Shown here: positions 34,879 through 49,858 of the stretch, piece by piece
How the letters are laid out: each line of letters starts with the position of its first letter
Position numbering within the stretch: position 1 is the first letter of the stretch
Notes under the pieces: generated by a model
What the model saw: only the letters and a program-made list of their open reading frames with translations
Databases searched by the model: none
What the model was told of the DNA's origin: nothing
Made by a program: the position numbers and the translations under genes
Assembly (NCBI GenBank): GCA_033580375.1
Contig: GCA_033580375.1_4527.1
From: a phage
Length of the DNA: 64,000 nucleotides
Reading direction: 5' to 3' (one strand)

Positions 34879-35415
34879 TTAGTACCCATTATCCTGACGT
34901 TCAAAGTTGTGTTGGTTTTTCAAGTAGTAAAGTTTAAAGATTTCTTCAGCCGAAAGACCTAGACCCTGGAACATATTTAGAACGAAATGCAGAATATCAA
35001 TCATTTCAAATTTAATTTCAAGTTGGTCTTCAGGAGACAGTTCATCGATACGACGATTTCGATATTCAGCATGTTGTGCTTTCCAAGGCTTCCATACACT
35101 GCTGGCAGCTTTTTCACCATTGCTCATACCACCAAGTGAAGTCAGCAGTTCACGGAATTCATCATCAATATAATCTTTCTGATTACGCAGCCAATCAACA
35201 ACATCGCCAGCAGTGACCAATTCATCAGGATGTTTGTTATGTTCAGGCTTGTCATTTGCCAGACGAACCTGTAAAGATTTCTGCATATCAAGCATTACCT
35301 GCAGTGGGTCTTTATCTTCGTGAATCAGAGCATTAAAATAAGCTTCTTCTGCTTTATCAACACCAGAAATAAGTTGTGAACATTCATTAAAGTGTGCCAT
35401 TATTTTTCCTTTCAA
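34879..35415 (-). CDS. 56: dCTPase/dCTP pyrophosphatase gp56 (MazG-like)
   Basis: 178 aa (T4 gp56 171 aa); position between soc and primase. Confidence 0.8.
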   Translation of the reverse strand: MKGKIMAHFNECSQLISGVDKAEEAYFNALIHEDKDPLQVMLDMQKSLQVRLANDKPEHNKHPDELVTAGDVVDWLRNQKDYIDDEFRELLTSLGGMSNGEKAASSVWKPWKAQHAEYRNRRIDELSPEDQLEIKFEMIDILHFVLNMFQGLGLSAEEIFKLYYLKNQHNFERQDNGY

Positions 35416-35489
35416 TTCAGTATAAGAGAGTTAATTCTAACATTAATTTTATAAAGCGTAATAAATAATAAGGTAACTAAGGAGATATT

Positions 35490-35687
35490 ATGTTTAAACT
35501 TCCATCGTTAATCAATGCTATTAAAGGCAATAAAAAGAAAACTGCTATCGCTGCAATAGTTGTAGGTGGCATTATTTCATGGAACTTCGGTATCGCACCG
35601 GTGTTAGTTGCTAATGGTATTATAGTTCCTTCTGTTCCGTTGGATACTGTTGTTGACCTAGCTTTTGCTGTTATAGGGCTAGTCTAA
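35490..35687 (+). CDS. small hydrophobic protein on opposite strand (candidate membrane peptide)
   Basis: 65-aa plus-strand ORF with strong RBS (AAGGAG, 7 nt spacing) in a minus-strand block; predicted hydrophobic helices; 3' end overlaps primase stop by 4 nt. Confidence 0.35.
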   Translation: MFKLPSLINAIKGNKKKTAIAAIVVGGIISWNFGIAPVLVANGIIVPSVPLDTVVDLAFAVIGLV

Positions 35688-36718
35688 ATTTTAGAATACC
35701 GAGATAATCTCATTTTAGCATGCAACCCACTTGAAATATTCTGTTTCATATATTCTAAAATTTCTTGTGGTGTTGCATTTTCTTTCATTACCATATCATT
35801 CACATCCTTTGATCTCCATGGAGCTCTATCCCAGAACATGACACGTTCGCCTGCATCAACTAATCGCTTCATACGAGCTATAGTATCCGGATGCCTAGGT
35901 TCATTATCCATTACCCATACCCGACGTTCTTTAAATGGTACCACATCTAAATCTATTGAGCCGCCTGTAATAGCGATTGCATTAGGTATGAATAAACTAT
36001 CAATAGGGCCTTCCATTACCCAGACGTCTCCTTCCTTAACACGTTCAACACCATAAATTTTTGTTGCGGACTCAAAAGCTTTAATAGTGATATATTTTTG
36101 AGGAGCATCTTTGCGAAGTGCACGTCCTTGAAATGACTCGGCCTTCCCGTCTTTATTAAAAATAGGAATCACTAAACGCGGTTCGGGAATCTCTTTCTTA
36201 TACGTACCAGGTTGAATCTTGTTGACCAATTTAGGCCATTCTAATGTGAACCATAATCTGTTCCACGATTCTTTAGGAATACACCGAGACTTAACATATT
36301 TCACAATAGGATGCTCTTCAGGCAACTTGTCCAGACGAGAACAAGACGGCAAAGAATTTATAGTCTTTTTCTCCGGTTCTGGTTTATGTTCAGGAACCTT
36401 TTCGATCTTTGGTTCCATTCTAGCTTTTTCTTTACGAACTTCCATTAGATATTCGCGATAAAGCTCTTCGTCATACTCTTTTAAGTATCCAGAAATCGTA
36501 TTATGATATTGGCAGTTATAGCAATGCACATTACCTGGAGTACCGCCATAATACCATCCGCGGGCTTTCATTGCATCTGTCTGAGAGTCGCCACAAACTG
36601 GACAACGAAACGTTAATTTAAATGTGCTTGAATTATTGATTTGTCTAAAACGAGGTAGGTGAGAAAACGCACGATAAGCAAATTCATTATCTATCCATTC
36701 AGCCATAGTATTCTCCAA
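35684..36718 (-). CDS. 61: DNA primase gp61
   Basis: 344 aa (T4 gp61 342 aa); zinc ribbon CPVCGDS...CYNC and TOPRIM motifs (VMEGPIDSLF, VWVMDNEPRH); N-terminus WIDNEFAYRA matches T4. Confidence 0.9.
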   Translation of the reverse strand: MENTMAEWIDNEFAYRAFSHLPRFRQINNSSTFKLTFRCPVCGDSQTDAMKARGWYYGGTPGNVHCYNCQYHNTISGYLKEYDEELYREYLMEVRKEKARMEPKIEKVPEHKPEPEKKTINSLPSCSRLDKLPEEHPIVKYVKSRCIPKESWNRLWFTLEWPKLVNKIQPGTYKKEIPEPRLVIPIFNKDGKAESFQGRALRKDAPQKYITIKAFESATKIYGVERVKEGDVWVMEGPIDSLFIPNAIAITGGSIDLDVVPFKERRVWVMDNEPRHPDTIARMKRLVDAGERVMFWDRAPWRSKDVNDMVMKENATPQEILEYMKQNISSGLHAKMRLSRYSKI

Positions 36719-36745
36719 AGGCCTTAAATTAATAAGGCCATCATA

Positions 36746-37240
36746 TCACAACTTATTGATATTTACTTTAATTCGCTTTCTTTTCTTGTAAGGAATTTGT
36801 TCTGGACCTTTATTTACGACTGCACCTGTAGTTGTTCCTGATGCAATAGCTTGAGGGCTGCCACCTGAATCACCGGCCACCATATCCTCAAATAAAGGGA
36901 GTTCTTTAAATATTTCTTTCTGTTGTTCTTCAGTAATGTTATAGCGTGAAGCTACAGCACTCCAAGCAGACATCATTGAGGCCATTCCATTAAGACCCGG
37001 AACAGTGCTCATCATTCGCTTCATTGAACGAACTGAAGCATGAAAAGGTGTATAAGCCGCTTTCTCTTCAGGAGTAGAAGGACGTTTAAGAACACTTCCA
37101 CGTTCGTCGATTATTTTGGCTTCGTACGCTTTCCATTCTGTAAAAGGTTTTTGCATTAGTCGAATAAACTTATATGCATAAACTGAATCTATTGCAGTGT
37201 TAATAATACCCATAGGTACCTCCTGAGTATATTTAATCAA
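36746..37240 (-). CDS. hypothetical protein
   Basis: 164-aa track ORF. Confidence 0.45.
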   Translation of the reverse strand: MIKYTQEVPMGIINTAIDSVYAYKFIRLMQKPFTEWKAYEAKIIDERGSVLKRPSTPEEKAAYTPFHASVRSMKRMMSTVPGLNGMASMMSAWSAVASRYNITEEQQKEIFKELPLFEDMVAGDSGGSPQAIASGTTTGAVVNKGPEQIPYKKRKRIKVNINKL

Positions 37241-37430
37241 TCACAAAGATCGCTTTATCGCCGTTCGCATCTGTGACTTCATATGTAGTGTCTTCATAGT
37301 GTGGAATATTCCAAATTACACCATCATTAGCTTTTACGCTAATATGACATTGGTGTTTTGAAACAACTTCATAATCTTCAAAACTTGTAAAAACACTAAT
37401 TTTAGAACCAGTGCAAATTGCAGTAGTCAT
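37233..37430 (-). CDS. hypothetical protein
   Basis: 65-aa track ORF. Confidence 0.35.
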   Translation of the reverse strand: MTTAICTGSKISVFTSFEDYEVVSKHQCHISVKANDGVIWNIPHYEDTTYEVTDANGDKAIFVID

Positions 37431-37431
37431 T

Positions 37432-38091
37432 TTAACCTCGATTCATAAATGCATTAAATATTTGGTCATCAACAGAAATTTCTAATTCGACTTCAATTGC
37501 TTCAGCCTTTTCTTCAGGTGGTAATTCGTATCCACACACTACAATTTTTTCATCGATATCAAAATATACAGAAGCAATATGATTAATGTTATTTTCAGTT
37601 AAGTCTAAATCAACATCAACATCTTTTTGACCTACACTTAAAGGATAACTAATACGGGTTATTTTATTATCTTTAACAAAGAGTCCACCAACATACTCTG
37701 TACTACGTTTGAAGTTTACACGTTTCCGAATTGAAAGATATGATGCATCTTTACCGTGGGCTCGGCTCATAGGACATAATGAATAACTAGAATAAGAGAT
37801 ATCAAATCCTACGCCTTCAACATGTGCCAGAGTATCATGAGTAAACCAATTATAGTCGTATGCCAAATCCATTAAATTATAATATGTGAATGGAACCGGA
37901 TTAACGTCATACGTTGTACCTTTAAAATCTGCCCAGGCAACGATTTCGTTATCTTTAACAATTACAAAAATTACACCAATATGGTATCCGTTATTATTTT
38001 CATTCGGCGTTATATTATAACATTGTGCATTAGGAAATTTACCATATTTAAATGGCGCGTTTTTGTGCATATAATAAATCATATTATTCAC
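37432..38091 (-). CDS. hypothetical protein
   Basis: 219-aa track ORF. Confidence 0.45.
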   Translation of the reverse strand: MNNMIYYMHKNAPFKYGKFPNAQCYNITPNENNNGYHIGVIFVIVKDNEIVAWADFKGTTYDVNPVPFTYYNLMDLAYDYNWFTHDTLAHVEGVGFDISYSSYSLCPMSRAHGKDASYLSIRKRVNFKRSTEYVGGLFVKDNKITRISYPLSVGQKDVDVDLDLTENNINHIASVYFDIDEKIVVCGYELPPEEKAEAIEVELEISVDDQIFNAFMNRG

Positions 38092-38377
38092 CTGTGATTT
38101 CGGTTACGATATCTTTGTTATCGAAATTAGGGTCACAATACAAAACATAGTTGTACTGCATGATACCGCCAGACTTAAGTTGTTCAACAACTTTATTAAC
38201 CATATTAGGACGGTCTCGTTTAGTGATGTTCATGATATCAGAGAAGATTTGTTGTTCAACATCTTCTTGATTTGCAGTCATTGACCACTCACAGAGGTCT
38301 TTATCATAACCTGCTGTAACTGGAGCTGGTGCACATGATACTGCAAGTAAGATTGCTGCCAATGATAACTTTTTCAT
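38084..38377 (-). CDS. sp: Spackle periplasmic protein Sp (lysozyme inhibitor / superinfection exclusion)
   Basis: 97 aa with signal peptide; GYDKDLCEWSMTA...DIMNI.KRDRP...QLKSGG.MQYNYVLYCD.NF.NK.I matches remembered T4 Sp. Confidence 0.8.
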   Translation of the reverse strand: MKKLSLAAILLAVSCAPAPVTAGYDKDLCEWSMTANQEDVEQQIFSDIMNITKRDRPNMVNKVVEQLKSGGIMQYNYVLYCDPNFDNKDIVTEITGE

Positions 38378-38440
38378 TTTAACTCCTTAGTTGATTTGAT
38401 AGGACTACTATACTATAGTCCATCTATAATGTAAACAAGT

Positions 38441-38689
38441 TTATTCTTTTTCGCGAATAATAATTACTTGTTGAGGCTGCTGAGCAGATTTCTTTTCGGC
38501 AACGATAGACCAAATTAAAGTTCCAATCCAACCAACCATCGTCCAGTTAAAGAGCAAAGATACAAAGAAGATTGCTGTTGTGCTTTTTGTGCCACGAATA
38601 AGTGCGATTACCCAAGGCAACATGTAAATGATGATTGAACCAATACCTGCGATTAAAACTGCTACTGAACTAGCTACGAATAATTCCAT
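38441..38689 (-). CDS. small integral membrane protein (two predicted TM helices; Imm-like?)
   Basis: 82 aa, hydrophobic (LIAGIGSIIIYMLPWVIALI...FFVSLLFNWTMVGWIGTLIWSIV). Confidence 0.45.
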   Translation of the reverse strand: MELFVASSVAVLIAGIGSIIIYMLPWVIALIRGTKSTTAIFFVSLLFNWTMVGWIGTLIWSIVAEKKSAQQPQQVIIIREKE

Positions 38690-38750
38690 GTTAATTTCCT
38701 CTTGATTTGTTATGTTTATAGTATCTTGTTTTAACTTTGGCGTAAACCAA

Positions 38751-39119
38751 TTAATTAAATTTGTTTAAACGTTCAATACACTGGACGTAGTTATTCGCGA
38801 TTTGTTTCTGGGTAGGCTCTTTACCAGTTGTTTCAACATAGCGAATGAATGCGATTTCAGTAGCCTGTAGACAATGTTCTTTAACGCGTTGTTCTTTTGT
38901 CAATGCTACAGTATCAGAGTCACGATAACGTTGAGCATGGGCATCGGCTTGAATCATTCGATTACCTACAGTAACCGGGTCTTCCACTTCAACTTTAGGT
39001 TGGTTGTACTGTTTAACATTCGGGTTATAAATCAATTGGCCAACATTATTAGGGATAAAGCCATGAGCACCACATCCAGTTAATCCGAATACCATTGCTA
39101 AAGCTATTAATTTTTTCAT
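38751..39119 (-). CDS. putative lipoprotein
   Basis: 122 aa; signal peptide with lipobox L-T-G-C (MKKLIALAMVFGLTGCG). Confidence 0.5.
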   Translation of the reverse strand: MKKLIALAMVFGLTGCGAHGFIPNNVGQLIYNPNVKQYNQPKVEVEDPVTVGNRMIQADAHAQRYRDSDTVALTKEQRVKEHCLQATEIAFIRYVETTGKEPTQKQIANNYVQCIERLNKFN

Positions 39120-39190
39120 TTCAATTTCCTCTGTAGTTGATAGAAAGATAGTAACACAGTATGCGGTGCTTGTAAACAGTTATTTTAAAA

Positions 39191-39379
39191 TTATCGAAAA
39201 TCTGCTTCAAAAACTTTCTCGTCATTAATAAATGCTTTAACTAATGCGTTGTTCACTTCAGCAAGTTGTACCGCAACCCACTCGATTTCTTCACGATCAC
39301 CTGATAACATGATATCTTTAGTGAACATCTCACCGCTTTTAAACCAGCCAATAAAAGTAATTTTAGTTAATTTGCTCAT
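39191..39379 (-). CDS. dmd: Dmd antitoxin (discriminator of mRNA degradation); track ORF trimmed to RBS-preceded Met
   Basis: ITFIGWFKSGEMFTKDIM...EVNNALVKAFINDEKVFEADFR matches remembered T4 Dmd; about 62 aa. Confidence 0.75.
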   Translation of the reverse strand: MSKLTKITFIGWFKSGEMFTKDIMLSGDREEIEWVAVQLAEVNNALVKAFINDEKVFEADFR

Positions 39380-39693
39380 ATTTCCTCGCAAAATGCCCAT
39401 TCAGCGTGATAAACTGTAGCACCTTTAGTATCATTCATTTGAACTACATCTACCGGAGAAATTACTCGATAGAGACGTGGTTCACCTCCATAAGAGCGTG
39501 CTGCTCGTCCTGCATAAATCTTTGCTAAACCGATATCTTCAGTAAAGAATACACGATCCAAGTTTTTCTTACGTCCGGTTTCAGACAGAACTCCTGTTTC
39601 TTCAGGAGGACAAAGCATGTTTTCGATGTTAGCTGAACTACTTGAACCGTGATAAAAAATCTTAAATTCTGCTTTACAATCAATGGTTTTCAT
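39376..39693 (-). CDS. hypothetical protein
   Basis: 105-aa track ORF; ATGA-type overlap with dmd start. Confidence 0.4.
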   Translation of the reverse strand: MKTIDCKAEFKIFYHGSSSSANIENMLCPPEETGVLSETGRKKNLDRVFFTEDIGLAKIYAGRAARSYGGEPRLYRVISPVDVVQMNDTKGATVYHAEWAFCEEI

Positions 39694-39748
39694 TTTGTTC
39701 TCCAGTAGTTGATATGTCTATAATAACACAACTACTGGAGAAGTAAAC

Positions 39749-40123
39749 TTAAAAACGTAATTTAGATATATCTGCGTTGATTTCGTTTTGGTTTGCGTCG
39801 TATGCAATTAAACGAACCGCTTTAGATGGGTCATTCAATGCATAGAAATGATGGAACATTGCTCGAACGATATCACCATTTACGAGTTCTACCTGGATAG
39901 GAGAACCTTTTTCGAGTTGGAAATGTTCATAAGCTTTGATGGTTCGCAGATAATCAAGTTTTTGATTTCCGGCTCCAACGATTTGTACGATACGTTTGCC
40001 CATGTTTTCCATACGAGATACAATAGTTTTAGGAGCAAGAATAACGTAGGTTGCCAGCGGAGAAACTACTTCAACAGTTGTGTTTTCGGTGATTGCAGTA
40101 AAAATTGCTTGAGACATATTCAT
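39749..40123 (-). CDS. hypothetical protein
   Basis: 124-aa track ORF preceded by early promoter. Confidence 0.45.
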   Translation of the reverse strand: MNMSQAIFTAITENTTVEVVSPLATYVILAPKTIVSRMENMGKRIVQIVGAGNQKLDYLRTIKAYEHFQLEKGSPIQVELVNGDIVRAMFHHFYALNDPSKAVRLIAYDANQNEINADISKLRF

Positions 40124-40152
40124 AATGTTTTCCTCTTGGTTGGTGTAAGTAC

Positions 40153-40182
40153 ATCATATCATGCCTAGAGGAAGATGTAAAC
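40153..40182 (-). promoter_or_regulatory. T4 early-type promoter (GTTTACA-18-TATGAT, minus strand)
   Basis: Minus strand GTTTACAtcttcctctaggcatgaTATGAT about 30 nt upstream of 40123 ATG, directly after the gene 41 terminator hairpin. Confidence 0.5.
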
Positions 40183-40189
40183 CCCGAAA

Positions 40190-40210
40190 GGAGACCGAAG
40201 TCTCCTTTTT
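40190..40210 (-). terminator. Terminator-like hairpin (GGAGAC-UUCG-GUCUCC) just after gene 41; orientation ambiguous (T5 tract on plus side, UUUCGGGGUUU on minus side)
   Basis: Perfect stem with UUCG/CGAA loop; same stem as the gene 35 terminator. Confidence 0.45.
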
Positions 40211-40211
40211 A

Positions 40212-41654
40212 TTAAAATTTTAACTCATTGGCTAAGCTATCTAGGTCAGCCCGTGTTGCCTTGGCTTTACCTACGCGTTCCGTGCGATTCACCTCTGCCT
40301 GACGCATCTGAGCACCTGCGTTTTCATTTACCGTGTTAGGTGTGTTCATGCCTTCTTGCTCAATCTCAACCCATTTCTGATTGCCTTTACGTACACCCAT
40401 CAAGAACTTGTTCCACTTATTCTTATCACCATATCGTGATTTGATTTGTTTGATAAGTTGTTGTTCAGCTTGTGCAAGTTCTTCGGTTTCAATTACGGCC
40501 AACATGAAATCTGCTGTCGCCGGTAAACCTGCTGATTCTGCAATATCACTCATGTTCATGTCTGAAGCATCCCATGCTGCACGTCCTACTTGAGCTGCAG
40601 TCCATAGAACTGTTTCAGATTCTACTGCTAATGCACGAAGTTCTTCTGCGATAGCTTTAACTAATGTGTAACTATTTTCAGTGTAAACTCTGATACGACA
40701 AGACCCACAAATACCTAAGTAATCGACTATAATTACAGACGGCACAAAGTTCTTCTTAAGTTTCAATTCATTAAGCAATGCACGGAATGTATTAGCATTA
40801 GCTCCACCAGTAGGATACTGTTTAACTACTAAACGTCCTAATGTTGATTTTGAACGCCATTTTTCCATCTTGGCTTTATATTCAGCATAAGATACGTTAC
40901 CATCATCGATATCATCGAGTGATACGTCAAGCATGTTTGCATCTATACGCTTAGCACAAACTTCTTCAGCCATTTCCATGGAAATATAAAGAACATTATG
41001 TCCTGTTTGAAGATAATCTGCAGCAAGTGAACAAAGGCCTAAAGATTTACCAACGTTAACACCAGCCATTAAAACGTTTAGTGTACCTGTTTCTGCACCA
41101 CCTTTAGTGATTTTATTCAGAATGTTTAATTTGAACGGGACCTTACGTGCTTTATTTAGATAAGAAAGCCAGCGTGATTCGTAGTCTTCCATCCAGTCAT
41201 GACCAACATAACTATCAAACGAAATTGAAAGTGCTTGACGCATAATATCAGGAATAGCTCCTACGTCAGGCATTTTCTTGTTACGTTGTTCTGGAGGTAG
41301 TTCGGCATTAGTCTGAATCTCAATGATTTTGGACGTGGCATTATACATCGCTTTTTGCTGGACATATTTCTCAGTTTCTTTAACCAACCATTCGTGGTCT
41401 TCAGGAGTATCAGCCAATTTTTCAATTAGGTCTGAAGTTCCTTTATATTCGGCTTCAGTTAAAGAACTGTTATCTAAAGCCACCTTTAATGCATTGATAG
41501 ATGGCATTGCATTATATTCGTTAACGTGGCTCTTTATAATTTTAAAGACATTTTTTGCCGGTCCACGCTCAAAATACTCAGAATCCATATAAGGCCAGAC
41601 CTTAGAAAAATAAGCCTGGTCGTATACGAGATGAGACAAAATAATTTCTACCAC
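40212..41654 (-). CDS. 41: Replicative DNA helicase gp41 (DnaB-like)
   Basis: 480 aa (T4 gp41 475 aa); Walker A GVNVGKS, DnaB-family motifs. Confidence 0.9.
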   Translation of the reverse strand: MVEIILSHLVYDQAYFSKVWPYMDSEYFERGPAKNVFKIIKSHVNEYNAMPSINALKVALDNSSLTEAEYKGTSDLIEKLADTPEDHEWLVKETEKYVQQKAMYNATSKIIEIQTNAELPPEQRNKKMPDVGAIPDIMRQALSISFDSYVGHDWMEDYESRWLSYLNKARKVPFKLNILNKITKGGAETGTLNVLMAGVNVGKSLGLCSLAADYLQTGHNVLYISMEMAEEVCAKRIDANMLDVSLDDIDDGNVSYAEYKAKMEKWRSKSTLGRLVVKQYPTGGANANTFRALLNELKLKKNFVPSVIIVDYLGICGSCRIRVYTENSYTLVKAIAEELRALAVESETVLWTAAQVGRAAWDASDMNMSDIAESAGLPATADFMLAVIETEELAQAEQQLIKQIKSRYGDKNKWNKFLMGVRKGNQKWVEIEQEGMNTPNTVNENAGAQMRQAEVNRTERVGKAKATRADLDSLANELKF

Positions 41655-41663
41655 GATAACTCC

Positions 41664-42026
41664 TTAAAAGAATTTAAATTTTTTCTTGGTTCGTTCATTA
41701 AAAGCTTGTTGTACCTGCATTGTAACACATTTTTCAACATGCGGCGCAAGTTCTGCTTTTCTGTCCTGGTCAAGAACTGCAAAGTCCATTACGATTTTAC
41801 CATCAACCCAGTCTAGTTTTGTAATATAGACTATATGATGAGAACCGTCTTCAAGTGTAATCAGAATCTCTTGAATGACGTTTTCCATTGCTGAACGGAT
41901 AATTTTAAGAGATTCATTAAACACTCGTTCTTTGCGAATGTCTTCCCCTTCCGAAGAAGGGGATTCATCAACGATTTCTAGATTTAAATCATCGAGATTA
42001 TTCATCGAAATCTTCCATTTCGTCAA
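41664..42026 (-). CDS. hypothetical protein at the gene 40 position
   Basis: 120-aa track ORF between uvsX and 41; assignment positional only. Confidence 0.4.
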   Translation of the reverse strand: MTKWKISMNNLDDLNLEIVDESPSSEGEDIRKERVFNESLKIIRSAMENVIQEILITLEDGSHHIVYITKLDWVDGKIVMDFAVLDQDRKAELAPHVEKCVTMQVQQAFNERTKKKFKFF

Positions 42027-43269: not shown

Positions 43270-43818
43270 TTAACGAGCCCATTTGATGATTTCTGTAATC
43301 AAATCATTACGTTCGCTTGCATTAAATCCTATAACTTTGTTAGCACCATCATGATTAAGTAATTGATACGTTTGGATTTTGTTATGAATTGCAAACTCTT
43401 CAAAATGTGAAATGACTGTATTAAAACTGAGTGAAGACAAAGTAATAAGATCGTCTTCAAAACTTTCAGTCATTTCGTTACGTGTTAAAATAATTGTGAA
43501 CACGTCATGGTTTTGGCAAAGACGAACATAATCCTGCTCATAAACATCAAGAACCGAGTCCGCATCTTGTCGAATACGTCCATAAACCCAGTTACTAATA
43601 TATCCACGGTCTAACAGATAAATCTTAGTAGGGTCTAAATAATTCAACATCGTTTCGAAACAACCAACTTCATTTCGAGACTTAACATCGAAACGTCCAT
43701 CAACTGTTCGTTTAGGGAAATCAATCTTTACATATCTTTCACTAATTTCCATTATGACATTAATGAAAGTTGTTTTGCCGGCATTATCTGGGCCATCTAC
43801 TAAAATAATTTTAGCCAT
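43270..43818 (-). CDS. P-loop kinase-like protein (thymidylate/dNMP-kinase fold); function unknown
   Basis: 182 aa; Walker A ILVDGPDNAGKTT near N-terminus, DRGY motif (LLDRGYISNWVYG) like the DRY/DRX motif of nucleoside monophosphate kinases. Occupies the slot of T4 beta-gt. Confidence 0.5.
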   Translation of the reverse strand: MAKIILVDGPDNAGKTTFINVIMEISERYVKIDFPKRTVDGRFDVKSRNEVGCFETMLNYLDPTKIYLLDRGYISNWVYGRIRQDADSVLDVYEQDYVRLCQNHDVFTIILTRNEMTESFEDDLITLSSLSFNTVISHFEEFAIHNKIQTYQLLNHDGANKVIGFNASERNDLITEIIKWAR

Positions 43819-43819
43819 T

Positions 43820-44716
43820 TTATTCCTCGATTACGACATCTTCGTATTTAGGTATATTATACGGCGAAGAAATTAAAGCATTAAAGTAGATGAACTCACC
43901 AAGACCTGGATGGAATACTTCTTCAGGATTTTCGAAATATTGAATCTTCGGACGTCCTTTAAGAATTTGATAGTACTCAGTTTTAGTTGGTTTAAAAATT
44001 CGAATCAGCGCTTCTTCAGGATACTTATTTCTGTCGAAGCTATTATTTGGATCGGTTATATAAAGTGGTTGTCCTAATTGAATTGCACATTCAACCACTT
44101 GTTCAAAATGATAACACGGATCACTAATTCGAAATGGATGAAAAATACCATCTACATGAATAGGAGCCAAATCACCTACAAGACGCTGCATGATGGAAGG
44201 ACGTATAACTTTCTGCGTTACGATAATCTTATTATCTGCGCCAGCGTTAACCAGCACTTCTTTTTGACGTTCATTCAACACAGTAGTTTGAAGTGAACGA
44301 TTAACCGACAACATGTCGGTTTTTAAGAATTCGTCAATATAAAAACGTGGTTTATTAGGGTCTGCAGTGATATTGAAATTGAATTCTACATCAAAAGCGC
44401 CGTCATATCCAGTGATATCTGTGATTAGAAAATCACAATCATAATAAGCAATTAATGAATCAACAACAAATTCATTTTCAGACCAGAAATATTTACGAGT
44501 GTTATACGCGTTATCTTTATACCATAATGGAACAAACTTAAATTCTGGGAAAAGACGTTCACATTCTTTAATATCAGATGCATTACGTGGATATGTAATC
44601 ACATCACCCGGATTAGCACGGTGCAAATGAAGTTGGAAGTTGCCATCCTTAAGGATAGCATACTGTCCAGTTTCATAAGACCGCATACTCAAGATTGGTA
44701 CGCGGAAAATAGCCAT
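43820..44716 (-). CDS. hypothetical protein (298 aa) in beta-gt position; no motif recognised
   Basis: Track ORF tightly packed (2-nt gap to next gene, 1-nt overlap with gene 42 homolog). Confidence 0.4.
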   Translation of the reverse strand: MAIFRVPILSMRSYETGQYAILKDGNFQLHLHRANPGDVITYPRNASDIKECERLFPEFKFVPLWYKDNAYNTRKYFWSENEFVVDSLIAYYDCDFLITDITGYDGAFDVEFNFNITADPNKPRFYIDEFLKTDMLSVNRSLQTTVLNERQKEVLVNAGADNKIIVTQKVIRPSIMQRLVGDLAPIHVDGIFHPFRISDPCYHFEQVVECAIQLGQPLYITDPNNSFDRNKYPEEALIRIFKPTKTEYYQILKGRPKIQYFENPEEVFHPGLGEFIYFNALISSPYNIPKYEDVVIEE

Positions 44717-45432
44717 TAGTCAAGGAATCCTTTAACATAATCAAAATCACGTTCAAACACATGGGCACTTACCATGGTATGAGTATAATCACCAACTTCT
44801 ACACCGCATTCGTTAGCGATATAATGAAGTAATTTTCCTTGGAGATAAAAATCCAACTGCATAACAACAGCACAGTTCTGAGAACGCATATGACAGTGGG
44901 TATAAAGCTTACCATCACGAATATAATAAGTCACTGAGTCAGTACATGGATATTCAAGTGTTTCATCTGAATCAAGCAAAGCCTGATCAGAACTTTCTAG
45001 AATTTGGAACACAACTCTTCGAGAGTTAGGTTTTTCTTTAAGTTCTTTTAGAAGAGCTGGTAATTGAGCCGCAATGCGAGGACCATAGAAAGTGTTGAAG
45101 TTTGCAGGCAAAGCATCTGATTTTGGTTTAGAAATAAATTTAGCGACATTAGGATATGCCTTAAACGCTTCTTCTGCATCAGTACCACCGGAAATCATAA
45201 ACTTCCAGAAGTCTTCGGCATATTCATAAGATATGCGATTAATACGTGGGTCGGTCATTTTGAATGATGATGGAGTGTCAACAACTACTGTCATAGACCC
45301 AATTTCATTACAACGTCCAATACGAGAATCAGTTACGAATTCTGGGTTTTCTAAAATTTCACGATTGACTGCTTTAAATGCGGTTTGAAAATCTGCGGCT
45401 TTGATATATTTCATTGTGTTATGTTTTCCCAT
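44716..45432 (-). CDS. 42: dCMP hydroxymethylase (thymidylate-synthase superfamily), gene 42 homolog
   Basis: 238 aa; catalytic region YPCTDSVTYYIRDGKL...HMRSQN...MQLDFY aligns by eye with T4 gp42 FMCTNTVQYLIRDKKI...NMRSND...FRNDY (Cys148 nucleophile, Asp179 equivalent retained). Confidence 0.7.
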   Translation of the reverse strand: MGKHNTMKYIKAADFQTAFKAVNREILENPEFVTDSRIGRCNEIGSMTVVVDTPSSFKMTDPRINRISYEYAEDFWKFMISGGTDAEEAFKAYPNVAKFISKPKSDALPANFNTFYGPRIAAQLPALLKELKEKPNSRRVVFQILESSDQALLDSDETLEYPCTDSVTYYIRDGKLYTHCHMRSQNCAVVMQLDFYLQGKLLHYIANECGVEVGDYTHTMVSAHVFERDFDYVKGFLD

Positions 45433-45557
45433 GTTTACCTCAATACAATTTATTATATACTCAATTCGTAAAGCTTATTTGAATTTCTTGGCAATGTTGA
45501 TATAACGTAAAGCTTCAGCATCGATACTTCCAAGAACACTATGAAGAAATGCATCAG

Positions 45558-45713
45558 CTTAGTATTCTAATTGAACAGGTTCTTTAATCACTTTAGCCGC
45601 TTTGGTTTCAAACAGGCCCATAAGGGCCTTTTTAAGAATTTGTTCGTTAGTGTTCAGTTTCATAGTCAAAATCTCTTCATTAAGTTTATAATTAAAAGCT
45701 TTTCTAGAAATCA
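45558..45713 (-). CDS. small ORF (~51 aa) translationally coupled (ATGA) to the U32 gene; coordinates approximate
   Basis: Hand translation MISRKAFNYKLNEEILTMKLNTNEQILKKALMGLFETKAAKVIKEPVQLEY; start overlaps U32 stop. Confidence 0.25.
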
Positions 45714-46871
45714 TTCCGGGTACCTCAAAGCGTCATCAGAGTTAGTTATATCAATAATAGATATGGAGTTTTCTGCTAACCCGTTTTTAGATAATTGACG
45801 TTTGTAATATCTTTCACAATATGTACACGTTGACCCACAGATTTCATTAGCACAATCGAAATCCGGATGTCTGAACCACCTTTTTTCTAAAAAGCCATCT
45901 AACAAAGAGGTTTCAATATTTACTGTATGTGAAAACTCAGTCTCATTTTCAAGAGTGAAAATAGTCTCTAAAGGCTTCCACAGTTCTAACAAATTACCTT
46001 CAAACTTTTCAGAAGCGTATGCTTCAAGAACTTTCAAAATGTAGTCTGTGCTACCTGTACGTCCTGAAACTTTGAATTGAGTGATACCAATATCATTATA
46101 AAGTTTCAAATCTTGAGGACGAACAAAACGAGTTCTCAGCCAGTTAAATGGGTCTGTATCACGAGCTTTAATGCAGTGTTGCATTGGATATCCATTTAAG
46201 GATTTAGCATCATCAGCGGTAACATCAGTACTATGGAAAATATAGCAAGAGTCACGATAACTACAATGTGTTGTATACCCTTTACCAGCATTAGAACAGA
46301 ACTCATTTACAAGAACTTCAAATATTATATTGTTCTTATTGCAAAACTCTGCTGCACGCTTCAGGAAAGAAACTGAACGGTTCTTATGAATTCCACAGCA
46401 GACCTTTTTGATATTATATTGGTCATGCAAGTATTTGATTTGAGTTACGGCATCAACATGTAGAATTGTTGAAACTTCAATCTCAATATCTTTATTGACT
46501 TCACGAACAATTTCCATAACAACAGGGTTAGCGATAGTAATACGCCATACACCTATTGACCAAAGATACTGAACATAATCCTGAATAGCTTTCTTCTTCC
46601 ACTCAACTAGTTCTCTTTTTGAACCAGGATTTATCGTGTTGAGTGTATAGTTAAAGCAAATACCTAATTCGTTACAACGTTTAACATAGTCTTCTAACAT
46701 TTTTTTGTCAACGTCAGGAAGCCTAAAATCAGGTCTGGCTGCTACAAAAGCCATTTCTCTTGTAGAGCCATATACTTCGTTTATCAAGCTATTAGGATAA
46801 GTTTTATTGAGCTCTACGATTTTATCAAGAAGAGCTAAATCAAAATTCGTTCCGATTTTAAAAGTATTCAT
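45711..46871 (-). CDS. Peptidase-U32-family protein (RlhA/TrhP/UbiU-like putative oxygen-independent hydroxylase)
   Basis: 386 aa; N-terminal TIM-barrel signature NEVYGS...FVAARPDF...ICFNYTLNTI (cf. U32 DAVY.G...NAR.F...YVTLNTL), central ITIANPVVMEIVRE...EIEVS and Cys cluster EFCSNAGKGYTTHCS, plus C-terminal CANEICGSTCTYC. Confidence 0.6.
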   Translation of the reverse strand: MNTFKIGTNFDLALLDKIVELNKTYPNSLINEVYGSTREMAFVAARPDFRLPDVDKKMLEDYVKRCNELGICFNYTLNTINPGSKRELVEWKKKAIQDYVQYLWSIGVWRITIANPVVMEIVREVNKDIEIEVSTILHVDAVTQIKYLHDQYNIKKVCCGIHKNRSVSFLKRAAEFCNKNNIIFEVLVNEFCSNAGKGYTTHCSYRDSCYIFHSTDVTADDAKSLNGYPMQHCIKARDTDPFNWLRTRFVRPQDLKLYNDIGITQFKVSGRTGSTDYILKVLEAYASEKFEGNLLELWKPLETIFTLENETEFSHTVNIETSLLDGFLEKRWFRHPDFDCANEICGSTCTYCERYYKRQLSKNGLAENSISIIDITNSDDALRYPE

Positions 46872-46929
46872 TTTTTTGCATCTCGCGTTAATTGATGCGA
46901 TGGGTTTTTTGCAGGTCTTACTTAAATTA

Positions 46930-47331
46930 TTATAGATTCGGTTTATACGATTTAAATGTTTCGAATTCGCCTTTATTCATAAGAGCTTTGAATTCGTCAG
47001 GACGCATAGCTTTGTCGTCGATAATCCAATCATATACTGGTTTATGTGTTAGCAAATTATGGTACTTCAAACCAATGTTTTCCAAGTTCTGAATCAGACT
47101 TGGGAGAATGTCAATTGCTATACGACCAGGACCTACTGACTTCATACCACGAGCAGTGTAAAGCGTTATGGTATGCCCTGCATCATACAGGGCATTAATG
47201 GCGGTCACCATTTCGACGTCTGGTTTGAAGTTCGCGTAATCACGATTGTTATTCCATTCCGTGATGCAATCATCGACATCAAAACAAAGATTAAGCATGT
47301 TTTCTACACGGCGCATTAGATTCGTTCCCAT
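46930..47331 (-). CDS. HAD-superfamily phosphatase (KdsC-like sugar-phosphate phosphatase)
   Basis: 133 aa; HAD motif I FDVDDCIT, motif II LYTAR, motif IV YDWIIDD. Confidence 0.6.
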   Translation of the reverse strand: MGTNLMRRVENMLNLCFDVDDCITEWNNNRDYANFKPDVEMVTAINALYDAGHTITLYTARGMKSVGPGRIAIDILPSLIQNLENIGLKYHNLLTHKPVYDWIIDDKAMRPDEFKALMNKGEFETFKSYKPNL

Positions 47332-49001
47332 TGATGAGTGATATCGCCACCGATTGGACGATAGGAAACACCAGTTTCTTTATCAGTTAGTACCCATTTA
47401 CCAGGATTTTTTGTAATCAGAGTAGCCGTTACAGGTTCTGCTACGTCATAACTAATAGAGCCGTCTTGAAGTACACGACCCATGTTACGTAATTGCTTAG
47501 TCAGAAGTTCCATACCTTTATAATATGCGGCTACCGCTTTAAGTGGATTATTCTTGAAATAACCACCTAATGCAATCCAGATAATCGCCACTGCCAAATG
47601 ATGATACTCGTTAAACGAACTCATCTTTCCATATTTGTAAACTAATGGATTGATGTTAATAGTCACATTACAAGTTGTTTCGTCAATAGTAAACTGTCCC
47701 CAGGTCGGATTAGCATTGAATTCATCATAACCTGAAACAGCATAAAGCACTTTAGCTTCATCGTACAATTTTGGCCCGTAAATCTTGGTTTCACCAAAAT
47801 ATCCACGAGGGTCGATAAACTTGACTTCGCCGTTATCAGTAATCATAGTATTACTGAAGTTCGGGTCACCGTGAATAACAGAGTACTGTCCCTGAGAACG
47901 GTTATGATAACGAATAAGGTGTTCTAAAGCTTGTTTCAACATTGGCTTCAGACGTCCAATCTTAGTGTAGTTCACATGTGTGATTTTACCAAATGAATCA
48001 ATCAATGGTTGAATGCTTTCACAACGATCAATAACTTTCGTATAGAATTCTTTAGTGAAATCACGACGAACAGTTTCAGGACTTACAAAATAAATGTCTG
48101 TGCTGAATTTCAGTGCATCTAAAATTGCATCAACAATTTGTGGACGAGCAAGACTTGATTTGGATTTAATATATTCAAATGCTGGCTTACCTTTAATGCG
48201 TTCCATTTCAAAGTTATTTTCATTAACAGAAACTAACTGAGGAACTGAATCTGATTTTACTTTCAAATACCATGAAATCTCATCTTTTTGAAGAGCTCGT
48301 CCCTGTTCTGTTAATGCGAATTTAGTTACAGTTTCTTCACCAATTTCAACTGCATTAAAACTACGATTAAGTTCACGAACTTCATGAGCCTTTTCAAGTT
48401 TAGGCATATCACCTAAATCAATTAGATTCATAAGCTCTGATTTATTGAATGCACTGCCGTAAAGGAATTCTACAAAATCACGTCCTTTACAGTATTCGTG
48501 AATTTCCTCGTCAGTAGAACCCATGTAGAATTCCCAGTCTTTGAACTGATAAATTCCTACAACATTACCGCCTGTTGAACCTACGTTAGTGATATTTTCA
48601 CCATCGAAATTATATCGACATTCATCACCCTTAACATAGATTGCGTTAACATTCCAAGACCATGAACCAAAATCTGGAATAATATCACACCAGTTAACAA
48701 CTACGTTATGGCCGTCTAAATCTTTATGTAATTTAGCAAGAGCATAAGCAGAACCATACGCTTCATCAACTGTACGAATAGTCACATTGAACCCTTCTTG
48801 CTCACAATAAGCTCGAACAGTTTCAGCAAATTTTGAATGAACTACTACAATAATTTCATCTGCACCAAGGTCAGAATAAATTGTATACAAATTGCTCAGA
48901 ATAGTGTCTTGTTTATAGTTCACAAGAACTTTTGGAATATGGTGAGTAATTGGATATAAACGAGTTGCCAGTCCAGCACCAAGAATAACAGCTTTTTTCA
49001 T
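47316..49001 (-). CDS. Bifunctional sugar-1-phosphate nucleotidyltransferase (N-terminal) / sugar kinase (C-terminal, APH/ChoK-like)
   Basis: 561 aa; N-terminus KAVILGAGLATRLYPITHHIPKVLV matches the RmlA/GalU G-x-G-T-R-L signature; C-terminal HGDPNFSNTMITDNGEVKFIDPRGYFG resembles the catalytic loop of aminoglycoside/choline/anomeric-sugar kinases. Confidence 0.7.
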   Translation of the reverse strand: MKKAVILGAGLATRLYPITHHIPKVLVNYKQDTILSNLYTIYSDLGADEIIVVVHSKFAETVRAYCEQEGFNVTIRTVDEAYGSAYALAKLHKDLDGHNVVVNWCDIIPDFGSWSWNVNAIYVKGDECRYNFDGENITNVGSTGGNVVGIYQFKDWEFYMGSTDEEIHEYCKGRDFVEFLYGSAFNKSELMNLIDLGDMPKLEKAHEVRELNRSFNAVEIGEETVTKFALTEQGRALQKDEISWYLKVKSDSVPQLVSVNENNFEMERIKGKPAFEYIKSKSSLARPQIVDAILDALKFSTDIYFVSPETVRRDFTKEFYTKVIDRCESIQPLIDSFGKITHVNYTKIGRLKPMLKQALEHLIRYHNRSQGQYSVIHGDPNFSNTMITDNGEVKFIDPRGYFGETKIYGPKLYDEAKVLYAVSGYDEFNANPTWGQFTIDETTCNVTININPLVYKYGKMSSFNEYHHLAVAIIWIALGGYFKNNPLKAVAAYYKGMELLTKQLRNMGRVLQDGSISYDVAEPVTATLITKNPGKWVLTDKETGVSYRPIGGDITHQWERI

Positions 49002-49041
49002 GTTGAAGTCCTCATTGGTAAGTAGGAGTATTGTACACTAT

Positions 49042-49185
49042 TCTAGTTAAAGCATTCATACTTTGCTTGTAGTCCAATCATAATCCATCCAATTACAAGT
49101 GTTGGAATCATTACTGGAGCCGTTAAGCTCCAGTAGATAGTCATGACAAGCATCAATAGTAAAAGTCCTATTGTTATTGCTTTCA
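49042..49185 (-). CDS. small hydrophobic membrane peptide (~47 aa), ATGA-coupled to the SIS-domain gene; coordinates approximate
   Basis: Hand translation MKAITIGLLLLMLVMTIYWSLTAPVMIPTLVIGWIMIGLQAKYECFN. Confidence 0.3.
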
Positions 49186-49818
49186 TTGCTCGCCTCGTAA
49201 CATGGCACCTAGAGCACCGCCAGGGTGGAACTTAAGGAAATCATTAGAGGTAAATCCACGTTCAGACGAAAGGTTGATAGCAAACGTATCGATAAGCGCT
49301 AACAACAATGTAGTGGACATGGTCGGAGCTAAAGAGTTCTCGTCAACTTCTACCGCGATACCGGTACAGAACGTATAATCAAAAAGAGCTTCGTATTCTT
49401 GCGGAATGTCAGGGTTACAATGTAACAGAATCTGTTTAACCTGAGGACGAATCATACGAAGATGTTTAGCAACACCTATCATTTCTTCAGTCTTACCAGA
49501 ACGACTGATGTGAACTAATACATCATTAGGTGCAATAAATCCTGCGTCGCCATGAGAATAATGCCCAGTGTTCAAATACATGCTAGGAATACCGAGTGAA
49601 GCAAATGTCTCAGAAGCTTTAGTTGCAATATTAGCATTCTTACCAACACCTGTAATAATTACACGACTTTCATAATTACTCAGTCCAGGGCGTCGAAGAG
49701 TTTCAAGAATAGCATTATAACGAGCAGGGTTTTGACTAATTACTTTGGCCATAGCGGCCAAAGAAGAAGCTTGTTTTATGATTGCGTCAATAGCGATAGT
49801 AATAGGAGTAGTTTTCAT
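49183..49818 (-). CDS. SIS-domain sugar-phosphate isomerase (KpsF/GutQ/KdsD-like arabinose-5-phosphate isomerase, no CBS domains)
   Basis: 211 aa; SIS motifs VIITGVGKNANIATKASETFASLGIPS...HGD...DVLVHISRSGKTEEM and C-terminal HPGGALG. Confidence 0.7.
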   Translation of the reverse strand: MKTTPITIAIDAIIKQASSLAAMAKVISQNPARYNAILETLRRPGLSNYESRVIITGVGKNANIATKASETFASLGIPSMYLNTGHYSHGDAGFIAPNDVLVHISRSGKTEEMIGVAKHLRMIRPQVKQILLHCNPDIPQEYEALFDYTFCTGIAVEVDENSLAPTMSTTLLLALIDTFAINLSSERGFTSNDFLKFHPGGALGAMLRGEQ

Positions 49819-49858
49819 ATTTCTCTCATTTAATTAGTTTACCGTCCTTGGCATTATA

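Follow-up and report, generated by a model that had tools for sequence, protein, structure and literature searches.

In T-even phages, several small early proteins guard the infected cell. Dmd is the antitoxin acting on RnlA and LsoA, by a mechanism that has been published. T4 Spackle, the product of sp (gene 61.3), has a disulfide between Cys29 and Cys81 and forms a complex with the gp5 lysozyme (PMC7677548). T4 Imm forms a complex with gp29, Arg33 and Trp50 both being needed for exclusion, and plasmid-borne Imm excludes T4 by itself (bioRxiv 10.64898/2026.03.06.709160). The genes are ordered 43 - imm.1 - imm - 42 in T4, and a metagenomic relative is arranged alike. No molecular function has been published for Imm.1, the literature containing passing mentions only. 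The record of RB69 (NC_004928; NP_861725-NP_861729) names sp, imm, imm.1, 61.4 and dmd in that order.

The 64,000-nucleotide stretch of phage DNA analysed here (the window) is 98% identical at the DNA level to genomes of Mosigvirus, the RB69-like phages. Four consecutive minus-strand ORFs in the ORF list, of 97, 82, 122 and 62 aa, lie at 38084-39379 (Table 1), each with a Shine-Dalgarno-like AGGAG or GAGGAAA 5' of it. The initial annotation had put them between the primase and helicase genes, which is where they are, gene 61 being at 35684-36718 and gene 41 at 40212-41654. Judged by orthology, the four genes are the already known and annotated Spackle, Imm, Imm.1 and Dmd of the RB69 type. We consider the cluster, with a probability of about 0.9, to consist of four known early genes of T4 in their RB69-type (Mosigvirus) arrangement, which would jointly protect the freshly infected cell. 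The proteins are 97-100% identical to their RB69 counterparts (Sp 99%, Imm 100%, Imm.1 99%, Dmd 97%) and, in pairwise comparison, 66%, 64%, 33% and 54% identical to those of T4. All four have Pfam matches well over the gathering scores, and matches to PHROGs are also above threshold for Imm (phrog_1039), Imm.1 (phrog_1754) and Dmd (phrog_2102). Gene order, strand and flanks (61.2/AdfA, ORF040c, ORF041c and 41) are identical to those of RB69. With family matches this strong, and with the conservation, we rejected the reading of these genes as chance ORFs. Searching with tblastn revealed a single imm, a single imm.1 and a single sp in the window, and an Rfam scan of 35000-42000 gave just two sub-threshold chance matches to miRNA models.

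Table 1. Features of the sp-dmd cluster, its flanks and the 43-42 interval, in window coordinates.
Feature	Position	Strand	Description
61.2 / AdfA (anti-DarT factor A)	37432..38091	-	8-nt overlap with the end of sp, assuming the GTG start
sp (Spackle, T4 gene 61.3 orthologue)	38084..38377	-	97 aa; predicted Sec signal peptide and 75-aa periplasmic helical protein
imm-sp spacer	38378..38440	-	early-promoter-like TTTACA-N17-TATAGT (38435..38407) over a stem-loop, then AGGAG RBS
imm (superinfection immunity protein)	38441..38689	-	82 aa, predicted inner-membrane protein
imm.1-imm spacer	38690..38750	-	early-promoter-like GTTTACG ... TACTAT
imm.1	38751..39119	-	122 aa, predicted lipoprotein; lipobox LTG↓C, Cys16, Gly at +2
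dmd-imm.1 spacer	39120..39190	-	early-promoter-like TTTACA-N17-TACTAT (39176..39148)
dmd (T4 61.5 orthologue)	39191..39379	-	62 aa, predicted cytoplasmic antitoxin-type protein
RB69ORF040c homologue	39376..39693	-	105 aa, translationally coupled to dmd
47-aa hydrophobic ORF	49043..49186	-	ancestral site of imm, in the 43-42 interval

Three of the four proteins can be read against orthologues that have been studied experimentally. Sp matches the Pfam family T4_Spackle (PF25676) over residues 1-96 of 96 (1.1e-42, 145 bits against a cutoff of 27). Its N-terminus has a hydrophobic core at residues 4-22 (KD19 1.9) followed by VTA↓G, which aligns with the AMA↓G site of T4 Spackle, and both cysteines of the T4 disulfide, Cys29 and Cys81, are kept; the initial description of a Spackle with a signal peptide is thus borne out. 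As the orthologue of the T4 protein it would be exported through Sec to the periplasm, where it would bind gp5, the tail lysozyme of T-even phages that superinfect the cell, and inhibit it. For Imm, the family match is to Imm_superinfect (PF14373; 1.8e-15, 56.9 bits against a cutoff of 27.9), together with phrog_1039, 'immunity to superinfection' (1e-30). The alignment with T4 Imm is full length over 83 aa (E 4e-37), and the 82-aa protein is, from this orthology, the canonical Imm. Arg33 and Trp50 of T4 Imm are retained as Arg32 and Trp49. The membrane character first ascribed to it is seen in two hydrophobic stretches, at residues 1-34 and about 40-60 (KD19 windows above 1.6). It would seem likely, given the studies of the T4 protein, that it blocks DNA entry by binding the tape-measure protein gp29 of the incoming phage from the inner membrane and so keeping the DNA conduit from opening.

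Dmd, named as such in the initial annotation, matches Pfam Dmd (PF17587) over residues 3-59 of 60 (1.4e-19, 70.6 bits against a cutoff of 27) and phrog_2102 (4e-32). As the orthologue of T4 Dmd it would neutralise RnlA/LsoA-type RNase toxins in the cytoplasm. The dmd start codon and the stop codon of the ORF before it overlap in the sequence ATGA. While RB69 carries 61.4 (70 aa) between imm.1 and dmd, the window has a clean 203-bp deletion there, which relative to RB69 removes 61.4 and shortens Dmd by one residue; the junction, at 39198/39199, is within the 3' end of dmd. The initial annotation had allowed that the cluster proteins might align to T4 61.1, 61.2 or 61.4 and show no envelope signals. 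This is not what was found, and tblastn with the T4 and RB69 61.4 proteins gave no match in the window at E 0.01 or better. The shorter form without 61.4 is common to many Mosigvirus genomes, as seen from matches in one piece as opposed to two.

Of the flanking genes, 61.2 gives a match of 6.4e-120 to Pfam AdfA and is 66% identical to T4 gp61.2. The 105-aa ORF next to dmd matches phrog_2110 (3e-60), is 99% identical to RB69ORF040c and is conserved in many Straboviridae. It has nothing significant in Pfam, one of five homologues matching ART-PolyVal at E 0.07, and it found no match among PDB sequences either as a single sequence or as a profile; a single-sequence AlphaFold2 model reached a pLDDT of 41. 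An Arr-like or other ADP-ribosyltransferase was considered for this ORF, and the Pfam and PDB-sequence searches gave it no significant support.

The fourth protein of the cluster is the lipoprotein. After MKK and a hydrophobic core it has the LTGC lipobox described initially, and of the 582 candidate ORFs in the 64-kb window that start with ATG and have 45 aa or more, it alone passes a lipoprotein-signal filter. It matches DUF5481 (PF17578; 1.2e-9, 38.9 bits against a cutoff of 27) and aligns with T4 Imm.1 at E 3e-19, by which it is the orthologue of that protein. T4 Imm.1 also has a lipobox (LAG↓C), together with an extra pair of cysteines, Cys33 and Cys44, that the protein in the window lacks. 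Imm.1 would be exported and lipid-anchored, with Gly at +2 predicting the inner leaflet of the outer membrane. Members of the family can do without the lipid anchor, as two homologues (P0002 and P0007) have an ordinary Sec signal in place of the lipobox. An AlphaFold2 model of the mature protein from a 5-sequence alignment had a mean pLDDT of 63, reaching about 88 in the helices of residues 60-105, with the N-terminal 46 residues unmodelled and the N-terminal half of low confidence. In the prediction the N-terminal half is disordered, and a helical hairpin with Cys83 and Cys114 forms the C-terminal part. Foldseek searches with this model returned nothing with E below 1 from the PDB and its own family only from BFVD, and the alignment profile had no matches among PDB sequences. 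Scanning Imm.1, Imm and the unknown ORFs beside them against NCBIfam and PADLOC gave nothing meaningful. The family is small: word-indexed and exhaustive HMMER searches of 1.84 billion representatives recovered only 6 clusters at 50% identity, and sequence searching alone did not extend it. Matches of Imm.1 by tblastn coincide with annotated imm.1 loci.

The position of the two genes differs from that in T4. In the window the interval between 42 and 43 contains sugar-modification genes where T4 has imm.1-imm, and it holds no second copy of imm. On gene order, the unit of promoter-like element, imm.1 and imm has moved from the 43-42 interval, as in T4, to the interval between dmd and sp. The relocation places both exclusion genes, imm and sp, side by side. 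The two genes had seemed unfamiliar in the initial annotation because T4 has them between 43 and 42 and not in its 61.x region. The old site retains a trace of the former arrangement. The 47-aa hydrophobic ORF found there is a homologue of an unannotated 49-aa T4 ORF; in T4 this ORF overlaps the imm stop codon, whereas in the window it has been left behind at the 43-42 site. The T4 imm-42 spacer matches the window by blastn with 71% identity over 115 nt (E 6e-9), and in the Gaprivervirus RZ a further homologue, gp076, directly follows imm.

Each gene of the cluster would have either an early-type promoter in front of it or translational coupling. The promoter calls in the three spacers are consensus matches only, and we describe them as early-promoter-like. 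The imm-sp intergenic RNA has a predicted fold of -13.2 kcal/mol. Imm.1 is encoded directly upstream of imm, whose start lies 61 nt downstream; the T4 imm.1-imm spacer is 11 nt, whereas the 61 nt in the window include a promoter-like element of their own. The promoter-like region between dmd and imm.1 may be homologous to the region upstream of T4 imm.1: blastn gives a weak match to the T4 43-imm.1 spacer (68% over 88 nt, E 0.064), and the string ACTGTTTACAAG...TACTAT...CTATCAACTAC, read by eye, is common to the spacers upstream of imm.1 in the window and in T4.

By investigating imm neighbourhoods in other phages we found that a lipobox protein adjoins imm in eight Straboviridae lineages, including at least six named genera. 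Imm.1 was matched in 657 phage records and Imm in 1041; the 657 correspond to the Tequatrovirus and Mosigvirus bands of Imm identity, and in every record common to both lists of matches imm.1 and imm are neighbours. Lipobox proteins next to imm were also seen in Moonvirus, Jiaodavirus, a Dhakavirus-like phage, Gaprivervirus, Muldoonvirus and Serratia phage 4S (the proteins from these other Straboviridae being Merlin gp46, JD18 gp024, PS2_047, 4S_045, RZ gp075 and fDHCT2_137). They are longer than Imm.1 of the window, at 146-168 aa compared with 122 aa, and their genes precede imm in certain genera and follow it in others. Apart from the lipobox and the adjacency to imm, they share with Imm.1 a motif after the lipobox cysteine, G-[DE]-[VI]-V-x-A-x-[ED]-V-G-[KQ], a G-x-L-[IV]-Y segment and two conserved cysteines in the C-terminal helices. 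Neither the DUF5481 profile nor tblastn detected these longer proteins, and an hmmsearch of them with a profile of mature Imm.1 was not significant. Using hhalign, full-length proteins aligned only over the signal peptide and the N-terminal motif, while the mature regions (-M 50) aligned with Imm.1 over their full length with 75-86% probability (E 3-6e-6), bringing the N-terminal motif and both cysteines into register. As full-length alignment was obtained only by hhalign of the mature regions, we regard the homology of Imm.1 to the longer lipoproteins as probable. In Providencia phage PSTRCR_127, the genes annotated up to about 700 bp to the left and right of imm include none for a lipobox protein. 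The presence of a lipobox protein beside imm in eight lineages, taken with Imm.1 being the sole lipobox ORF of the window, suggests that Imm.1 is a conserved envelope partner of Imm.

What these proteins add to exclusion can be read in several ways. The initial annotation proposed that the membrane protein and the lipoprotein might be extra factors, for exclusion or against host defences, that had been inserted in the 61.x region and went beyond the repertoire of T4. Both genes are indeed absent from the T4 61.x region and both proteins carry envelope-targeting signals, but over their full length they are orthologous to T4 Imm and Imm.1, RB69 names them imm and imm.1, and the usual imm site between 43 and 42 has no second copy. 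The orthology and the single-copy result refute this reading, which can hardly be right. The membrane protein is an exclusion factor, as was proposed, in that it is Imm; it is not an additional one, being the only imm product encoded in the window. The lipoprotein is likewise no unfamiliar factor, given its alignment with T4 Imm.1 and its name in RB69. It is also unlikely that Imm.1 is required for Imm activity, since Imm by itself, supplied from a plasmid, excludes T4 and Imm.1 would therefore not be needed for the core block. We favour, tentatively and at well short of even odds, the reading from sequence and gene order that Imm.1 is a periplasmic accessory of the Imm block, meeting the tail tip or tape-measure protein in the periplasm or tuning the specificity of exclusion. 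The wider form of this proposal, that Imm.1 is the T4/RB69 tip of a Straboviridae lipoprotein family obligatorily linked to imm and is a functional periplasmic partner of Imm, is somewhat unlikely as it stands.

Imm.1 might instead mask a receptor in the manner of T5 Llp or Cor, inactivating an outer-membrane protein from the periplasm and blocking adsorption independently of Imm. All three are small early phage lipoproteins predicted to reside on the inner leaflet of the outer membrane (the residue at +2 in Imm.1 not being Asp), imm.1 lies in a neighbourhood of exclusion genes, and Llp provides a precedent (PMC9586334; bioRxiv 10.64898/2026.03.26.714494). The likeness is however one of analogy only: in Pfam, PHROGs, NCBIfam, PADLOC, PDB sequences and Foldseek searches of PDB and BFVD, Imm.1 has no match outside its own family and resembles neither Llp nor Cor in sequence or fold, and some homologues would be soluble periplasmic proteins with no lipid anchor. 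Moreover, the outer-membrane receptors differ between phages whose Imm.1 is near-identical, and exclusion of the classical T4 kind takes effect once adsorption is over. We consider receptor masking improbable. A stronger contender, at not quite an even chance, is that Imm.1 has nothing to do with exclusion, for example modulating host envelope enzymes or the timing of lysis from the periplasm, and is adjacent to imm through a shared mobile early cassette. It would fit with Imm alone sufficing for exclusion, with the divergence of Imm.1 (33% identical to T4, the other orthologues that were compared being at 54-86%), with the tiny size of the family and with the cassettes of early promoter and stem-loop that flank each gene and could promote shuffling of modules. 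Inheritance through co-transcription fits less easily, however, with a lipoprotein that has changed sides relative to imm between genera, upstream in some and downstream in others, and has still kept its place next to it.

For genome annotation little is gained, as these are named genes of a well-known phage group. In RB69-like phages, imm and sp come together beside the anti-defence genes adfA and dmd, giving a compact early island that would protect the infected cell. Imm.1 is conserved, is predicted to be targeted to the envelope, and has travelled with imm through the relocation and across at least six named genera; with gp29 now known as the target of Imm, its role is straightforward to probe. 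If Imm.1 does work as a partner for Imm, it might catch or divert the incoming tail tip or tape-measure protein on its way to the inner membrane, or determine which phages are excluded. Superinfection immunity in the T-even phages would then be a two-component system of an outer-membrane lipoprotein and an inner-membrane protein, and not the work of a single protein.

The interval between primase gene 61 and helicase gene 41 is occupied by minus-strand ORFs throughout (table below). The initial annotation had described four ORFs at 38084-39379, three of them with envelope signals, and its coordinates proved exact; a Shine-Dalgarno sequence lies before each of the four and the signals can be seen. 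The 97-aa protein has an N-terminal hydrophobic signal ending in VTA/G, the 82-aa protein is strongly hydrophobic at residues 1-34 and 40-60, and the 122-aa protein has an LTG/C lipobox (Cys16, glycine at +2). Among the 582 ATG-start candidate ORFs of 45 aa or longer in the entire 64-kb window, this last was the only one to pass the lipoprotein-signal filter.

All four proteins match Pfam families, and the 82-aa protein also matches the PHROG 'immunity to superinfection' (1e-30). In pairwise comparison with T4 the identities are 66% for Sp, 64% over the full length for Imm (E 4e-37) and 33% for Imm.1 (E 3e-19), and the RB69 counterparts of all four are 97-100% identical. The RB69 GenBank record already gives the names, in the order sp, imm, imm.1, 61.4, dmd, ORF040c, ORF041c, 41. 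On the basis of these matches, identities and names we identify the 82-aa two-helix membrane protein as Imm and the LTGC lipoprotein as Imm.1. These two had been put forward as possible additional factors, a suggestion that falls away as both are already named in T4 and RB69; they were missed because the T4 pair sits between genes 43 and 42, not in the 61.x region. The ~3.5 kb surrounding the cluster has 98% DNA identity with many Mosigvirus (RB69-like) genomes, and more than 150 sequenced genomes of this genus contain the cluster. The RB69 record has carried the genes, their names and their arrangement for two decades; this is an ordinary, already-known gene set.

Features of the window, with ORFs between genes 61 and 41 taken from the ORF list
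Feature	Coordinates	Strand	Pfam match	E	Remark
Gene 61, primase	35684-36718				
164-aa ORF	36746-37240	-			nearest gene 61
65-aa ORF	37233-37430	-			
219-aa ORF (AdfA)	37432-38091	-	AdfA, anti-DarT factor A	6e-120	neighbour
97-aa ORF (sp)	38084-38377	-	T4_Spackle	1e-42	
Spacer	38378-38440	-			promoter-like element
82-aa ORF (imm)	38441-38689	-	Imm_superinfect	2e-15	
Spacer	38690-38750	-			promoter-like element
122-aa ORF (imm.1)	38751-39119	-	DUF5481	1e-9	
Spacer	39120-39190	-			promoter-like element
62-aa ORF (dmd)	39191-39379	-	Dmd	1e-19	
105-aa ORF	39376-39693	-			
Spacer	39694-39748	-			promoter-like element
124-aa ORF	39749-40123	-			nearest gene 41
Spacer	40124-40211	-			promoter-like element
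Gene 41, helicase	40212-41654				
uvsX-gene 43 interval	43270-49818	-			
182-aa kinase-like gene	within 43270-49818	-			
298-aa ORF	within 43270-49818	-			
Divergent gene-42-like enzyme	within 43270-49818	-			24% identity to T4 gp42
386-aa ORF	within 43270-49818	-			
133-aa ORF	within 43270-49818	-			
561-aa ORF	within 43270-49818	-			nucleotidyltransferase/kinase-like
211-aa SIS-domain gene	within 43270-49818	-			arabinose-5-phosphate isomerase-like
47-aa ORF	49043-49186	-			small hydrophobic protein

Dmd is reportedly the antitoxin with which T4 counters RnlA and LsoA, and its Pfam match and 54% identity to T4 Dmd would place the window protein in the same family. For Sp, Imm and Dmd alike the mechanisms are predicted from what has been published on their orthologues in T4. 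Once its signal is cleaved, T4 Spackle has 75 residues; it is a helical protein of the periplasm with a Cys29-Cys81 disulfide, and inhibits the gp5 tail lysozyme in a 1:1 complex (PMC7677548); both cysteines are kept in the window Sp. T4 Imm, a small protein of the inner membrane, prevents translocation of the genome; it binds the tape-measure protein gp29, and its exclusion is weakened by R33A and W50A (2026 preprint, 10.64898/2026.03.06.709160); both residues are conserved in the window Imm, as R32 and W49. AdfA (T4 61.2) lies directly downstream of sp, so that the island comprises two exclusion genes and two anti-defence genes; in ATK47, a close relative, RefSeq does not annotate the AdfA CDS.

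The 105-aa ORF, a homologue of RB69ORF040c, shares an ATGA overlap with dmd, which couples the translation of the two. Its identity is 64-90% among very distant T4-like phages (Aeromonas, Acinetobacter, Klebsiella, Stenotrophomonas) and 34% in a Vibrio phage; Tequatrovirus and T4 are absent from the matches. A few records are labelled 'ADP-ribosyl transferase' and a Y-H-G motif is invariant; there was no significant Pfam or PDB match, the best being ART-PolyVal for one homologue (E 0.07), and single-sequence AlphaFold2 gave no usable model. Before the 124-aa ORF, an RB69ORF041c homologue (phrog_10668), lie a promoter-like element and a strong hairpin resembling a terminator, and Pfam, NCBIfam, PADLOC and PDB sequences gave nothing informative for this ORF. 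The 164-aa ORF has a full-length match to phrog_2086 and spans two RB69 genes, 61.1 (92 aa) and ORF032c (63 aa), T4 gp61.1 (54 aa) matching its C-terminal end only; either one gene has been split in the annotation of RB69 or two genes are fused in the window.

The T4 imm.1-imm pair is several kilobases distant, flanked by DNA polymerase gene 43 and gene 42, and the gap between dmd and sp in T4 holds 61.4, encoding an unrelated 85-aa protein. With T4 and RB69 proteins as tblastn queries, imm, imm.1, sp and dmd each occur once in the window and 61.4 not at all, and the 42-43 interval of the window (44716-52570) has no imm, with sugar-nucleotide genes instead. Relative to RB69 (locus L005, 4751-4963), a clean 203-bp deletion (junction 39198/39199) removes 61.4 and the last residue of Dmd. 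This indel is polymorphic among related Mosigvirus genomes, where matches are either in one piece of ~3500 bp or in two pieces of ~3707 bp. The spacer 5' of imm.1 resembles that between gene 43 and imm.1 in T4 (ACTGTTTACAAG ... TACTAT ... CTATCAACTAC), the blastn match being weak (68% over 88 nt, E 0.064), a likeness that would fit a move of imm.1 and imm together with their own early-type promoter. The T4 'intergenic' region between imm and 42 matches window 49053-49165 (71% identity, E 6e-9) and a conserved small hydrophobic protein is encoded there, 47 aa in the window and 49 aa in T4 (~9221-9376 of the T4 locus L002, minus strand), where the ORF starts with an ATG overlapping the stop codon of imm and has no annotation in NC_000866. 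When imm.1-imm relocated in the Mosigvirus lineage, the small ORF was left at the 43-42 site. The ORF has the pattern ...IYWS.T.P.MIPT..GW...LQ.KYEC.N-stop, and its counterparts are RB69 ORF054c, probably annotated too short, and Gaprivervirus RZ gp076, immediately 3' of imm. Other genes replace T4 b-gt, 42, imm and imm.1 in the uvsX-gene 43 interval, presumably the RB69-type arabinosyl-hmC DNA modification cluster.

Every spacer of the cluster contains a GTTTAC...TAnnAT early-promoter-like element on the minus strand, frequently overlapping a stem-loop; several of these are strong, for example that of the spacer before the 105-aa ORF (-23 kcal/mol). A 33-nt repeat (73%) is common to the spacers before imm.1 and the 105-aa ORF (39126-39158 and 39698-39730). 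Promoter/stem-loop cassettes have reportedly been suggested as drivers of module shuffling in T4-type genomes; the window spacers resemble them, and by analogy such shuffling may be linked to the cluster.

For Imm.1 the full-text literature held passing mentions only and no published function was found there, the term 'DUF5481' being absent from the texts searched. The family is very small: a set of 1.84 billion representative proteins contains six clusters of it at 50% identity, and 657 phage records have Imm.1 versus 1041 with Imm, the 657 matching the Tequatrovirus and Mosigvirus identity bands. Imm.1 has diverged much further between T4 and the window, at 33% identity, than the other orthologous genes compared, at 54-86%; gene 42, whose product in the window is another type of enzyme, is the one exception. 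A lipobox is present in the T4 and window proteins and in the homologues P0008 and P0009, and ordinary Sec signals take its place in the homologues P0002 and P0007; from this distribution the predicted constant of the family is periplasmic location, not the lipid anchor. Two cysteines are invariant (Cys83 and Cys114 in the window protein). In the AlphaFold2 model the C-terminal half forms a helical hairpin (pLDDT ~88) and the N-terminal 46 residues are disordered, and Foldseek with this model found no neighbour beyond the protein's own family.

At both genomic positions, in T4 and in the window, imm.1 adjoins imm, as it does in all phage records common to both match lists and in a metagenomic contig with the order 43 - imm.1 - imm - 42. 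Among the genera examined that have Imm and not Imm.1 by tblastn, a 146-168-aa lipobox protein directly adjoins imm, upstream in Moonvirus Merlin, Jiaodavirus JD18, Klebsiella phage Roth01, Muldoonvirus PS2 and Serratia phage 4S and downstream in the Dhakavirus-like phage fDHCT2 and Gaprivervirus RZ. Like DUF5481, these longer lipoproteins have the motif G-[DE]-[VI]-V-x-A-x-[ED]-V-G-[KQ] after the lipid-modified Cys, a G-x-L-[IV]-Y segment and two cysteines in C-terminal helices. Their mature regions align with Imm.1 over the full length in hhalign (75-86% probability, E 3-6e-6), and hmmsearch with the Imm.1 profile was not significant; they are probably homologous to Imm.1. Providencia phage PSTRCR_127 (Gualtarvirus) has no lipobox protein among the annotated genes within ~700 bp either side of imm, and there (1519-1952 of its locus, L015) imm is followed directly by an 80-aa Spackle homologue. 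The imm-sp adjacency therefore arose more than once. The Spackle-like sequence reads GYNKDKCEF...YAMYCDESFDN...GGE, and both genes are annotated as hypothetical.

That the adjacency is kept despite relocation and changes of orientation suggests that Imm.1 is functionally coupled to Imm. Plasmid-expressed Imm alone excludes T4 (10.64898/2026.03.06.709160), and Imm.1 would therefore be an accessory at most; that it acts in the periplasm as an accessory of the entry block is possible, and we offer this tentatively. It is improbable that Imm.1 masks a receptor in the manner of Llp or Cor, since it has no similarity to these proteins and some of its homologues have no lipid anchor. A function unrelated to exclusion is a real possibility, if short of even odds. 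Returning to the linkage itself, the Imm.1-type lipoproteins may form a broader family linked to imm and serve as a second component in T-even superinfection immunity, a doubtful reading to which we give a probability of about 0.3.
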